The translations under genes and the position numbers were made by a program. Source: Bilifractor sp. (GTDB taxonomy: Bacteria > Bacillota > Clostridia > Lachnospirales > Lachnospiraceae). Taken from it: 64,000 nt of DNA. Where the stretch lies: NCBI GenBank assembly GCA_051879715.1, contig JBJEMO010000071.1, positions 4,762 through 68,761 of the forward strand. Direction: 5' to 3'. This document shows positions 31,421 through 33,420 of the stretch, one piece after another (position 1 is the stretch's first letter; every line of letters begins with the position of its first letter). The notes below the pieces were generated by a model, which ran no database searches, was not told the DNA's origin, and saw nothing but the letters and a program-made list of their open reading frames with translations.

Positions 31421-31441
31421 AACTGAATATCAGACAGAAAA
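31421..31441. repeat. Left arm of the 21-bp inverted repeat bracketing the ChW cassette
   Basis: AACTGAATATCAGACAGAAAA, which matches the reverse complement of 33400-33420 at 20 of 21 positions. Confidence 0.9.
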
Positions 31442-31465
31442 ATGTCCCTGCATGGATGCAGGGAC
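31436..31465 (-). terminator. Intrinsic terminator of the ChW gene (inside the intron)
   Basis: GTCCCTGCAT / ATGCAGGGAC stem (31465-31444 on the minus strand) followed by ATTTTTCT, 50 nt after the ChW stop codon. Confidence 0.75.
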
Positions 31466-31514
31466 GGAAAAGAGGATTATTGATCCAGAAAAAGCAAGTG
31501 TTGTGAAAAGACAA

Positions 31515-33164
31515 TTATGTTTCGTCAACCCACTTTTTTTCGGTGTGTGTCACCGCGTCATGATGAACTACATGGGTCTCAGCATCGTGATGTACAACAT
31601 GCGTTACAGCATCATGGTGAACTACATGCGTTACAGCGTCATGATGAACGGTCTTGTATGTGGCGTCGTGATGAACAGTAATCGGGACCTTTACAGATCT
31701 GGAACCATATCCACCGCCTTCTCCTGCAAGCATATGCTTTTCCTGATCGGCATCTACCTGATCCTGCGTCCATCCATGATAATCTTGCCCACAGACATAA
31801 CAAATGTTATGCTCTTCTGTTTTATACGTTGTCTCATCCCACGCCGGCTGATCCACGACCTGCTCATCGTATGCCTGCTTGTCAACGATTGTCTCATCCC
31901 AGGCTGGCGTATCTACCACGGTTTCGTCCCATGCATCTTTATCAATGACTGTTTCATCCCAAGCTGGTTTGTCAACGACTGTCACTGTTTCATAGTGGCC
32001 CTTGCTTCCGTCTTTATTGACGAAACCGTAACTGCTTTGTTCGGATGCTCCTTTGAAGTCATTGTCGGCAGGCGGCGCGGCATCTTTCTTCACCAGAACG
32101 ACCTGGATTCCTTCCAGTCTGTAGGAATAACCAGCTGTGCCTGAGGGCTCTCCGTCTTTGACCCAGGCAAGCCAGCCGAAGTTCTGTGCATGGGACCGAT
32201 AGTATACGTCATAATAATTTGCCAGATCACCAGTCAGAGCTATTTTGATGGCTTCAAGCCTCAGGGACTTCCCTTCCGTTCCGGATAATTCACCGTCACT
32301 TTTCCAGTCCTGCCAGCCATAGTTCTGCACATGTGTACTGTAGGTAATACCACCGGATTTGTATGGGTTCGAGCCAACAGATAAATTGATTGCTTCAAGC
32401 CGCAGGGATTTTCCTACAGTTCCTGAGATCGTTCCATCAGTTACATAAGGCTGCCATCCTACATTCTGTACGTGGGTCCGGTAAGAAATTGTCGGAAGGA
32501 CAACCTTCTTATCAAATGCCGCAGAAGACTGGCTCACGATACCGCCATATGATGCGGAAGGTGCCGCGCTTCCCTTTGGAAGAATCAGAACTTGAATCGC
32601 TTCCAGTCGGTAAGCATATCCTTCTGTACCTGCGCTCTCACCATTTTTCGCCCAGTGAAGCCAGCCGAAATTCTGTGCATGTACCCTGTAGTAGATATCA
32701 TATTTTGCTTTACAGGCATCATCACCGAAATTGATTCTGATGGCTTCAAGCCTCAGGGACTGTCCTTCTGTTCCGGCCATTTCCCCGCTGTTTTTCCAGT
32801 CCTGCCAGCCATAATTCTGTACATGGGTCTGGTATACCAATGGAATGTCATGTTTCTGCTGATCCTTGTCAGTGGCAGATGCCTGAATCCAGATCCCCTC
32901 CAGACGCTTTGACTGACCCGTTGTTCCGGATATTCCGCCGTTATGTACCCAGTCCTGCGTTCCATCATTCTGTACATGTGTCCGGTAGGATACATCTACG
33001 GATTCCGTCTTCTGGTCATCGCTGGCTTCGGTGGTTTCATTCAATTCTGCAGAAACTGTTCCAACATTTGCGGGTGTCTGTTCCTCTCCCATGACCGGCA
33101 CAGACGCGGTAAGAACTGTCACGGCGGTAAGTACCGCAGCCAGCAACTGCATGCGTCTTTTCAT
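31515..33164 (-). CDS. Secreted ChW-repeat protein (six ChW repeats) with a repetitive AWDET / His-rich C-terminal tail
   Basis: Signal peptide MKRRMQLLAAVLTAVTVLTASVPVMG. Six copies of Y(R/Q/S)THVQN(x)GWQ(x)W...G(T/S)(T/E)G(Q/K)SLRLEAI match the clostridial hydrophobic-W (ChW) repeat. AGGAGG RBS upstream. Confidence 0.85.
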   Translation of the reverse strand: MKRRMQLLAAVLTAVTVLTASVPVMGEEQTPANVGTVSAELNETTEASDDQKTESVDVSYRTHVQNDGTQDWVHNGGISGTTGQSKRLEGIWIQASATDKDQQKHDIPLVYQTHVQNYGWQDWKNSGEMAGTEGQSLRLEAIRINFGDDACKAKYDIYYRVHAQNFGWLHWAKNGESAGTEGYAYRLEAIQVLILPKGSAAPSASYGGIVSQSSAAFDKKVVLPTISYRTHVQNVGWQPYVTDGTISGTVGKSLRLEAINLSVGSNPYKSGGITYSTHVQNYGWQDWKSDGELSGTEGKSLRLEAIKIALTGDLANYYDVYYRSHAQNFGWLAWVKDGEPSGTAGYSYRLEGIQVVLVKKDAAPPADNDFKGASEQSSYGFVNKDGSKGHYETVTVVDKPAWDETVIDKDAWDETVVDTPAWDETIVDKQAYDEQVVDQPAWDETTYKTEEHNICYVCGQDYHGWTQDQVDADQEKHMLAGEGGGYGSRSVKVPITVHHDATYKTVHHDAVTHVVHHDAVTHVVHHDAETHVVHHDAVTHTEKKWVDET

Positions 33165-33349
33165 ATTTCTTCCTCCTGATAAATACTCTGAATTTTGCTG
33201 TCCCCTTCATCATTTTGGTTCATGTTTGAACCGCAGGTAAATTTTCTCCAGTACGATAGGGTCGAAATCCGAGGATCACAATTCCCCATGTGCGGAAAAT
33301 TATGATCAGCAGTGATCTCTGGCGCAGAAAAAATATATCTTTTTCCGAT

Positions 33350-33377
33350 ATTTTAAATGGGGGGGGTATAAAGTCAA
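33350..33377 (-). promoter_or_regulatory. Sigma70-type promoter of the ChW gene with a G8/C8 tract in the spacer
   Basis: Minus strand reads TTGACT (33377-33372), a 16-nt spacer TTATACCCCCCCCATT, then TAAAAT (33355-33350), about 180 nt upstream of the ChW start codon. Confidence 0.6.
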
Positions 33378-33399
33378 GCCTTATAAGAGCGATAAATAC

Positions 33400-33420
33400 T
33401 TTTCCGTCTGATATTCAGTT
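33400..33420. repeat. Right arm of the 21-bp inverted repeat bracketing the ChW cassette
   Basis: Plus strand TTTTCCGTCTGATATTCAGTT is the reverse complement of AACTGAATATCAGACGGAAAA. Confidence 0.9.

Follow-up and report, generated by a model that had tools for sequence, protein, structure and literature searches.

How does the gene of a secreted surface protein come to lie inside domain IV (DIV) of a group II intron, and can an intron so loaded still serve the gene that it interrupts? The question is raised by a 64,000-nt stretch of Bilifractor sp. DNA (GCA_051879715.1, contig JBJEMO010000071.1, positions 4,762 to 68,761 of the forward strand; called the window here, and numbered from its own first letter), in which an initial annotation had described a 1.96-kb cassette bracketed by an inverted repeat within such an intron. 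Our best explanation, to which we give a probability of about 0.7, is that this is a resident intron lacking a reverse transcriptase (RT), placed at a conserved site in a pilus adhesin gene, whose DIV has been turned into a gene carrier closed by a long-range RNA helix. Eight lineages of related introns were counted: the window itself and the loci L001, L160, L161, L163/L164, L165-L167, L168 and L169. The parts of the host gene and of the ribozyme are as follows (ORF, open reading frame).

31333-34309, minus strand: group II intron of 2,977 nt, 5' GUGCGAC ... GCACAG 3' (Rfam, in-frame exon fusion, end of a conserved block)
34310-37681, minus strand: 5' exon, with signal peptide, Ricin-B lectin repeats and the first half of a SpaA-fold domain, ending ...AETGKD (ORF, Pfam)
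27952-31332, minus strand: 3' exon, with the remainder of the SpaA domain, five TQ-ester domains and a C-terminal tail resembling a sorting signal (ORF, Pfam)
33705-34309, minus strand: ribozyme domains I-III (DI-DIII; RF02004 and comparison with L001)
33890-33900, minus strand: exon-binding site 1 (EBS1) loop CCCUUUGCUGC, core CUUUGC at 33898-33893, covarying with the 5' exon
34312-34317, minus strand: intron-binding site 1 (IBS1) GCAAAG, exon positions -8 to -3, pairing with EBS1 and covarying across 5 lineages
33706-33757, minus strand: DIII-like stem-loop GGAAAUC ACGAGGGAUGAAGUUCCUGUAACGGGAACGGACCAACA GGUUUCC, a conserved element
31368-31402, minus strand: domain V (DV), CGC triad form with a GAAA loop (RF00029; identical in L001)
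31333-31367, minus strand: domain VI (DVI) hairpin GAUUCGAA-GCAA-UUCAAUC with a 14-nt 3' tail (read off the sequence)

The location of the cassette in the DIV of a group II intron, as first proposed, was confirmed by Rfam matches to DI (RF02004, 40.8 bits against a gathering score of 34.5, 34054-34204, minus strand) and to DV/DVI (RF00029, 46.7 bits against 40, 31311-31403, minus strand), and by the formation of the DIV stem in the predicted fold. The 5' boundary, GUGCGAC at 34309, fits GUGYG, and in comparison with L001 a perfectly conserved intron block stops at GCACAG, with divergence at third codon positions from 31332; the boundaries are uncertain by about 3 nt. DI-DIII are 86-90% identical between the window and L001, though synonymous sites of the flanking exons differ at 54-60%. 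The DIII-like stem-loop is kept, with compensatory changes in its stem, in L160, L161, L163, L168 and L169. The conserved DVI hairpin has 7 bp and a single bulged base (C or U) and is followed by a tail of 14-16 nt ending in CAG or CAA; it too shows compensatory changes in L163 and L169. Allowing up to 3 mismatches, the 64-kb window contains a single DV, and a search for a nested second intron (twintron) gave no second DV or DI match within 30800-34800 at E<=1. No RT or maturase was found among the DIV ORFs or 20 other (larger) ORFs of the window. The DV core matches more than 100 Firmicutes introns in a DNA pattern search, and J4/5, DVI and DIV differ; we think that the intron descends from bacterial class B, a lead taken from the Clostridium tetani intron C.te.I1. 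A DI loop close to the intron's 5' end also contains an AT-rich 22-nt tandem repeat (2.1 copies, 34219-34265); L001 carries another AT-rich repeat there, which marks this loop as variable.

The two ORFs flanking the intron, 34295-37681 and 27952-31389, are halves of one adhesin gene whose C-terminal tail is hydrophobic and basic. The split gene is the last of a pilus operon, with three sortases, a backbone pilin and a minor pilin upstream. Canonical boundaries fuse the exons in frame, giving ...AETGKD/GDGSLAGAQY... in protein and a predicted ligated junction of ...GGCAAAGAU/GGAGAUGGC... in nucleotides (the slash marks the junction). In-frame fusion was likewise found in L001, L163 and L169, and an uninterrupted adhesin homologue at another locus, L126, aligns straight through the junction. 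Where the 5' exon is visible in the related loci it ends in the same SpaA-domain motif: ...LLQKSDKDTGEE/ in L163, ...LLKKKDAGTADD/ in L165, ...LLTKRVKNGVE/ in L168 and ...LLKKYDKETGEE/ in L169. Compared with L001 (dS about 1), exon 1 has a ratio of nonsynonymous to synonymous divergence (dN/dS) of 0.18 and exon 2 one of 0.14, which indicates purifying selection. Exon 2 stays open over 1,126 codons and is conserved although it lacks its own start codon and signal peptide, which argues that splicing is maintained.

EBS1 follows the exon from lineage to lineage. The EBS1-IBS1 pairs are CUUUGC/GCAAAG in the window and L001, UCUUCGC/GCGAAGA in L163 and L169, CAUCUGCGG/CCGCAGAUG in L165 and UCUGCUCU/GGAGUAGA in L168. 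Seven pairs, at exon positions -3 to -9, hold in 5 of 5 lineages, and five of the seven change on both sides. The covariation score was 0.455, compared with 0.175 in shuffles (0 of 500 as high), and every slid register scored lower. Taken with the purifying selection on both exons, this covariation suggests that splicing is probably maintained. The exon-1 frame itself runs into a stop four codons into the intron (34295-34309; VRRV, then stop), and it stops 5-8 codons into the intron in L163, L165, L168 and L169. With so early a stop, unspliced RNA would yield a secreted exon-1 protein without a cell-wall anchor.

The related introns were reached through a small ORF in DIV that is described below. 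L001 was found through one close homologue of this ORF, and its contig is also deposited as a metagenome-assembled genome titled Eubacterium sp. The other loci came from the context of eight further clusters of small-ORF homologues; in L160, L161, L163/L164, L165-L167, L168 and L169 the small ORF lies inside the DIV of a related intron. At L162, where the small-ORF gene stands at the very start of a short contig, no intron is visible. A scan of genome contigs with a DV-core pattern returned mostly ordinary Firmicutes introns, with L023 (L001 lineage) the only related one among the matches listed, and a tighter DV pattern run on metagenome contigs gave the L001 contig as the sole relative among 33 loci. 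As the DV patterns recovered just the L001 lineage, DNA patterns are a poor route to these introns, and it was the protein family that worked. A blastn search of DI-DIII against plasmids gave no match. Two or three close DV copies on the same strand were observed at L036 (three, at 1043, 1374 and 1900), L057, L048 and L019, which recall the repeated DV/DVI units of C.te.I1.

The cassette is predicted to be closed by a long-range helix next to the basal stems of DIV.

33398-33420, minus strand: 5' arm of the long-range helix, AACUGAAUAUCAGACGGAAAAGU (complementarity, fold; kept in L001, variant in L168)
31421-31443, minus strand: 3' arm of the long-range helix, AUUUUUCUGUCUGAUAUUCAGUU (complementarity, whole-intron fold, comparison with L001 and L168)
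33684-33704, minus strand: 5' strands of the DIV basal stems, GUCAUGU then GGAGAA (pairing with 31404-31418 in the fold)
31404-31418, minus strand: 3' strands of the DIV basal stems, UUCUCC, AA and ACAUGAC (whole-intron fold)

The inverted repeat that had first drawn attention, at 31421-31441 and 33400-33420, is as it was described: two arms of 21 nt, 95% complementary (20/21), with 1,958 nt between them. The rest of the 64-kb window holds no copy of the arm motif, even when 3 mismatches are tolerated (0 expected by chance), and in 200 shuffles of the intron the best 21-mer inverted repeat had 19 matches, so that 20/21 was reached in 0 of 200. In the minus-strand (intron-sense) RNA the single difference between the arms becomes a G.U pair, as had been claimed, and the helix grows from the 21 bp originally foreseen to 23 bp, with a duplex energy of -30.8 kcal/mol. 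This 23-bp helix is present in the minimum-free-energy fold of the complete 2,977-nt intron. Both basal DIV stems also form in that fold (GUCAUGU/ACAUGAC, 33704-33698 with 31404-31410; GGAGAA/UUCUCC, 33689-33684 with 31413-31418), with the 3' arm 2 nt from UUCUCC, again in agreement with the initial annotation. The helix is predicted to present the cassette as a closed, terminal loop, the arrangement that the annotation had envisaged.

Comparison of related introns, which had been proposed as a check, gave a divided answer. The arms are kept in L001 and L168 and absent in L163 and L169. In L001 the 5' arm and the 12 nt upstream of it are the same as in the window (33/33); in the 3' arm the G.U of the window becomes G-C, and the distal end retains four pairs across a one-base bulge. 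The arm helix is likewise in the minimum-energy fold of the L001 intron. The arms of L168 are AGCUGAAUAUCGGAC and GUCCGAUAUUCAGUC, where A-U has become G-C at pair 12 and G.U at pair 2. The three sequences together thus offer one compensatory pair and two one-sided changes that retain pairing. What lies between the arms varies among lineages: ChW repeats in the window, a linker rich in serine and threonine in L001, and HicAB with a proline/glutamate-rich protein in L168. L163 and L169 have instead a DIV basal stem (8 or 10 bp) and a purine/pyrimidine stem (8 or 7 bp), which close one loop holding both ORFs, and the DIV basal stem shows compensatory changes among the window, L163 and L169.

The arms resemble the intron's own DIV. 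The basal DIV 5' strand of the window is similar to the 5' arm and matches the 3' strand over 29 nt with 72% complementarity, the corresponding strand of L001 likewise resembles the arm and reads GGAGAAAUAACUGA..., and the motif AACUGAAUAU of the arms is also found in the DIV of L160 and L161. The simplest history would be a duplication of the DIV stem's 5' strand to a place downstream of the small ORF; the 3' strand would thereby have gained a stronger partner, closer by, and only the cargo would be looped out. No complement of at least 7 nt to the conserved 12 nt that precede the 5' arm on its upstream side (ACGCACCUUGAC) exists in the intron of the window or of L001. L161 (270-500) has an insert of about 190 nt separating DIII from the small ORF; the inverted repeat that brackets it starts with AACUGAAUAU, as the window arm does. 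Within the insert are a T run, two tandem repeats of 33 nt and a strong promoter-like site (TTGATT-N17-TGTGATATAAT); it may be a small RNA gene.

The DIV of the window carries two genes and a set of signal-like sites.

33461-33679, minus strand: small ORF of 72 aa, pI 10.8, candidate intron-encoded factor (dN/dS, model, homologues in DIV)
31515-33164, minus strand: cargo gene of 549 aa, with signal peptide, six ChW repeats and a conserved C-terminal domain (ORF, Pfam)
32109-32993, minus strand: ChW-repeat block, a lineage-specific module (PF07538, six stretches)
31518-32003, minus strand: conserved cargo domain, with GHYET, xAWDET repeats, CxxCG, H..LAGE and HHDAVTH repeats (L001 alignment, motifs)
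33350-33377, minus strand: promoter-like site TTGACT-16-TAAAAT, with a C8 run at 33359-33366 in the spacer (10/12 consensus matches)
31444-31465, minus strand: terminator-like hairpin GUCCCUGCA-UCCA-UGCAGGGAC (9 bp, 6 G-C pairs)

The initial annotation had held that the loop does not encode an intron-encoded protein. This stands as far as RT, maturase and LAGLIDADG proteins are concerned, the last having no Pfam match in the DIV of the window intron. A conserved 72-aa ORF outside that loop had been missed. Its place is the 5' end of DIV, ahead of the 5' arm, and its Shine-Dalgarno sequence is AAAGGAGA; the GGAGAA of the DIV stem doubles as this ribosome-binding site. The base of DIV is the usual start of intron-encoded proteins. 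The dN/dS is 0.20 in its own frame, compared with 0.68 and 1.2 in the other two, and the protein has a pI of about 10-10.8 in six lineages. The family consensus is W..AK..CRL..EE..MAK.LG..P..LI.NIP.K.E.WK.P...WIR.LY.KRF, and an AlphaFold (AF2) model gives five helices with a pLDDT of 86. The family has no Pfam or NCBIfam match, and Foldseek against PDB returned nothing significant (best E 3.2). An exhaustive profile search recovered 47 homologous clusters, and eight of the nine clusters examined are in the DIV of related introns. We regard this protein as the best candidate for an intron-encoded factor.

A region-4 sigma-like helix-turn-helix was considered for the small protein because of an LT.RQ motif and was rejected, as neither profiles nor fold supported it. 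Two kinds of C-terminal feature were seen among its distant homologues (P0259, P0261, P0266, P0269, P0271, P0284, P0285 and P0287): some end in DD(I/L/V)PF, resembling the C-terminal tip of SSB, and P0266 and P0284 have a C-terminal extension with a weak match to Pol-beta nucleotidyltransferase. These features hint that the domain acts in nucleic-acid transactions.

The second gene of DIV is the cargo proper. As first described, it is a 549-aa ORF (33164-31515, minus strand) with six ChW repeats (Pfam PF07538, E 2.6e-103); its Sec-type signal peptide was called by eye. The ChW block is 85% identical to part of P0013, a protein named Bilifractor sp. by its source, and exact look-ups of the ChW protein and of P0013 among contigs found none. 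The cargo protein of L001 has 386 aa and a lipoprotein-type signal, with a linker rich in serine, threonine and lysine in place of the ChW block. The C-terminal domain (162 aa, Cys/His-rich) is 78% identical to that of L001, with a dN/dS of 0.11, and the DIV cargo of L163, L168 and L169 shares its motifs GHYE, AWDE/AYDE repeats, CxxCG, AH..H.LAGE and HHDAVT repeats, so that the domain is found in the DIV of five lineages. The cassette had been called foreign, a term that we would not retain. Its GC content is 0.47-0.49, the same as that of the exons, which rules against a recent horizontal origin of the whole cassette; together with the residence of the domain across five lineages, this indicates that the gene is old in these introns and not a recent foreign arrival. 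The ChW module alone is specific to the lineage and looks newly acquired.

The conserved cargo domain has 424 homologues; the 120 listed are all shorter than 285 aa and most are without Pfam annotation. Its AF2 model (pLDDT 96) is an array of long beta-hairpins, for which Foldseek against PDB found nothing significant (best E 0.11). The closest free-standing homologues, at L125 and L126, are outside introns and have no Rfam match there, hence the domain is not intrinsically intronic. At L126 (3852-6792) such free-standing members, two of them with DUF5648, lie directly downstream of the uninterrupted SpaA/TQ adhesin gene, and this suggests that the cargo domain is functionally tied to SpaA/TQ adhesins independently of the intron. 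Other lineages carry other loads. In L165/L166 a different, non-secreted ORF stands behind a promoter-like site in DIV. Between the helix arms of L168 (1442-2126) a HicA toxin/HicB antitoxin pair was found ahead of the cargo-family gene; to our knowledge, no second case of a group II intron with a toxin-antitoxin module in it is known.

The promoter and the terminator of the initial annotation are present in the sequence as it gave them, and both are consensus matches. Promoter-like sites number 6, compared with 4.5 in shuffles, and terminator-like sites 4, compared with 3.1; as these counts are not above shuffles, the function of the sites is unproven. The U run that follows the hairpin is the start of the 3' arm. 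In L001 the hairpin stem is conserved and the U run degenerate, and L168 has no strong hairpin at this place. The C run between -35 and -10 (C8 in the window, C6 in L001) resembles a slipped-strand phase-variation switch for the cargo protein; its length could be such a switch, or the site could be not the promoter. Adjoining the hairpin is a 10-nt box, CUUUUCCGUC (31464-31473; here box X), which is a perfect complement of the distal 5' arm (33397-33406, -15.1 kcal/mol) and is conserved in L001. As a speculation, box X might serve as a long-range antiterminator only in transcripts that include the 5' arm.

From these elements the following course of events can be proposed. An RT-less group II intron would have been resident at a conserved site in the SpaA-fold domain of the last gene of a sortase/pilus operon, and its DIV would have become a gene carrier, with the gene of a small, basic, helical protein at its base and that of a secreted surface protein behind it. 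The old 5' strand of the DIV stem would then have been duplicated downstream of the small ORF, so that the 3' strand now pairs with the nearer copy, and the resulting helix of 21-23 bp would close the 1.96-kb cargo loop and bring DI-DIII beside DV-DVI. Splicing would join the exons into one anchored adhesin of about 2,250 aa, and unspliced RNA would give the truncated, unanchored exon-1 protein. Either the precursor or the excised intron would serve as messenger for the cargo, and probably a transcript from the cargo's own promoter as well.

Several observations weigh against this account. We infer splicing from sequence, and DVI has no canonical bulged A that we could find, with an intron end of CAG or CAA and not AY. 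The EBS1-IBS1 pairing ends 1-2 nt before GUGCG, hence the 5' splice site may be slightly shifted, as in C.te.I1. In L001 (9985-9995, compared with 33706-33795 of the window) about 95 nt are missing, comprising a hairpin and the DIII-like element (UCACGAGGGAUGAAG...GGACCAACAG), and splicing may be impaired in that copy. A hairpin with a U run stands on the sense strand 40 nt upstream of DV, and if it were an efficient terminator the catalytic domain would be cut off, which would speak against splicing in cis. The promoter-like block, nearly identical in L001, has C6 there in place of C8, making the spacer 14 and not 16 nt. The covariation of the arms, scored as had been suggested, yielded its compensatory pair from three sequences and was not significant, with 142 of 500 shuffles as good, and since L163 and L169 do without arms, the helix is not essential to the family. 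The link of the small protein to RNA is drawn from its position and charge.

These points leave room for other explanations of the arms and of the split gene. The arms could be a relic of a duplication or insertion that enlarged DIV, or could control transcription of the cargo, with the U-rich 3' arm as the tail of a terminator and the 5' arm as its long-range antiterminator partner, and have no part in ribozyme folding. That the 3' arm starts with the terminator U run, that box X is complementary to the distal 5' arm and conserved in L001, and that L163 and L169 are armless would all fit. However, neither the arms nor the 12 nt beside them vary when the window is compared with L001, despite a dS of 0.8-1.4 at neighbouring synonymous sites, and the compensatory A-U to G-C change occurs in L168, a lineage without a strong hairpin, so that we consider this explanation rather unlikely. 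A further idea, which has been raised for C.te.I1 as well (PMC3919590), is a split intron that acts in a manner resembling trans-splicing, the arms pairing between two molecules. One transcript would run from the operon promoter to the internal hairpin and U run, with exon 1, DI-DIII and the 5' arm; the other would start at the internal promoter and read through, with the 3' arm, DV-DVI and exon 2. The promoter-like and terminator-like sites in DIV and the strength of the arm duplex agree with it. It is nonetheless improbable: the transcript from the internal promoter must itself cross the hairpin and U run, L163 and L169 have no visible internal promoter, their cargo ORF beginning 16-44 nt after the small ORF, and with all parts collinear on one strand, folding in cis is simpler.

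We think it very unlikely that the intron is dead and the adhesin permanently split, with the exon-1 protein and the cargo as the only products. Such a state could be read from the missing RT/maturase in the window, the atypical DVI and 3' end, the internal terminator-like site and the absence of the DIII-like element from L001, but it does not agree with the low dN/dS of exon 2 over its whole startless length, with a ribozyme far more conserved than synonymous sites, or with an EBS1 that tracks the exon in five lineages. As to the origin of the arms, a terminal inverted repeat of 21 nt might suggest an insertion sequence (IS) or a miniature inverted-repeat transposable element (MITE) that brought the cassette into the intron, a possibility that the initial annotation had named as one that would refute its reading. 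The flanks TTGAC and ATTTC differ and show no target-site duplication, there is no transposase, the window holds no second copy of the arm, and lineages whose cargo genes differ by a dS above 1 have the arms at an identical place in the intron. AACUGAAUAU in the DIV of L160 and L161 and the likeness of the arm to the intron's own basal strand point elsewhere. With a DIV-strand origin, no target-site duplication or transposase, and an orthologous position in three lineages (the window, L001 and L168), we take an IS or MITE origin to be excluded for practical purposes. A resident, RT-less intron whose gene-carrying DIV is closed by the helix remains the explanation that we prefer.

Among known systems the nearest relative in kind is C.te.I1 of C. 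tetani (McNeil, Simon and Zimmerly 2013; PMC3919590, PMC4024640), likened here by its published description: an RT-less intron, derived from class B, that interrupts the gene of a surface-layer protein. Both lie in a Firmicutes cell-surface gene, lack an RT, have a large DIV loop without similarity to intron-encoded proteins, which in C.te.I1 is non-coding, and show an IBS1-EBS1 pairing offset from GUGYG; the distal 3' splice sites of C.te.I1 also remove segments that enclose whole ORFs. They differ in that the four DV/DVI repeats of C.te.I1 are alternative 3' splice sites, whereas the window has a single DV; in that the ORFs enclosed in C.te.I1 are alternative 3' exons, whereas the genes of the window are self-contained and its small ORF is conserved in the family; and in the dedicated long-range helix that closes the cargo loop of the window.

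Group II introns that encode LAGLIDADG proteins, known from fungal mitochondrial rRNA genes and from Thiomargarita (class IIB1, rRNA hosts; PMC4424553, PMC13190283), likewise have a DIV ORF that is not an RT and demonstrate that DIV can host another protein family. Theirs is a known mobility enzyme, whereas no endonuclease motifs are matched by the DIV proteins of the window, of which the small one has no known family, and the host is a protein-coding adhesin gene. The Ll.LtrB 'targetrons' carry engineered cargo genes in DIV (PMC2518211, PMC3706431), and in them too a full heterologous cassette sits in the DIV loop while the ribozyme core folds and splices. They are artificial, RT-dependent delivery tools; the window intron is natural and RT-less, has a closing helix of its own and is conserved at one host site over a dS of about 1. 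In organelles, introns with an expanded or broken DIV (trnK/matK, and the trans-spliced nad and psaA; PMC4424553, PMC7912774) show that DIV tolerates kilobases, that halves can be joined by DIV base pairing and that immobile introns are kept for splicing only. However, they need nuclear factors, and what they contain is derived from a maturase, genes of other kinds being found only where the intron has been physically split. The present case is a bacterial cis intron with unrelated genes, to which the window and L001 add a promoter-like site. B.a.I2 of Bacillus anthracis (cited in PMC4424553) gives two products from one intron-containing gene, and there as here unspliced and spliced RNA would correspond to a product of the upstream ORF only and to a fusion protein. 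B.a.I2, which encodes an RT, does so through a pair of 3' splice sites separated by 4 nt, while for the window the alternative product is deduced from the stop codon in the intron.

According to a 2015 review (PMC4424553), bacterial group II introns are almost always retroelements and ORF-less forms are rare, C.te.I1 being the single independent case; the forms it describes include RT, degenerate RT/maturase and LAGLIDADG proteins, twintrons, altered splice sites, alternative splicing and trans-splicing, and the only intron-encoded proteins it names are LAGLIDADG proteins and those derived from RT. A genome survey (PMC8919778) required either an RT or, as its definition of ORF-less introns, a DI-IV within 1,300 nt of DV. 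This rule would miss all of the introns described here, and the type may be under-counted. In a searchable library that was incomplete, we found no literature tying group II introns to pilins or sortase substrates, or describing natural non-RT cargo in DIV; as far as we found, the intron family, its small protein and its cargo, including the toxin-antitoxin pair, are undescribed.

A bolder proposal, possible but doubtful, is that these introns form an unrecognized RT-less lineage in which a helical, basic protein (about 65-85 aa) would have taken the place of the RT/maturase and, as a third class of intron-encoded protein beside RT and LAGLIDADG, would act as the intron's own splicing cofactor or regulator, and in which DIV would be a heritable gene-carrying site that ties an accessory protein, in one case HicAB, to an adhesin whose form is set by splicing. 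Eight lineages of RT-less introns at one pilus-adhesin site, with conserved non-RT genes, appear to be kept by selection. If they splice, the small protein would be a concrete candidate for a new splicing factor, and these introns would offer a natural precedent for kilobase cargo in DIV closed by a designed-looking helix, useful for targetron engineering. Splicing would also mean that bacterial group II introns can persist as host-integrated, gene-bearing elements, a persistence that bears on ideas about the origin of organellar and nuclear introns.

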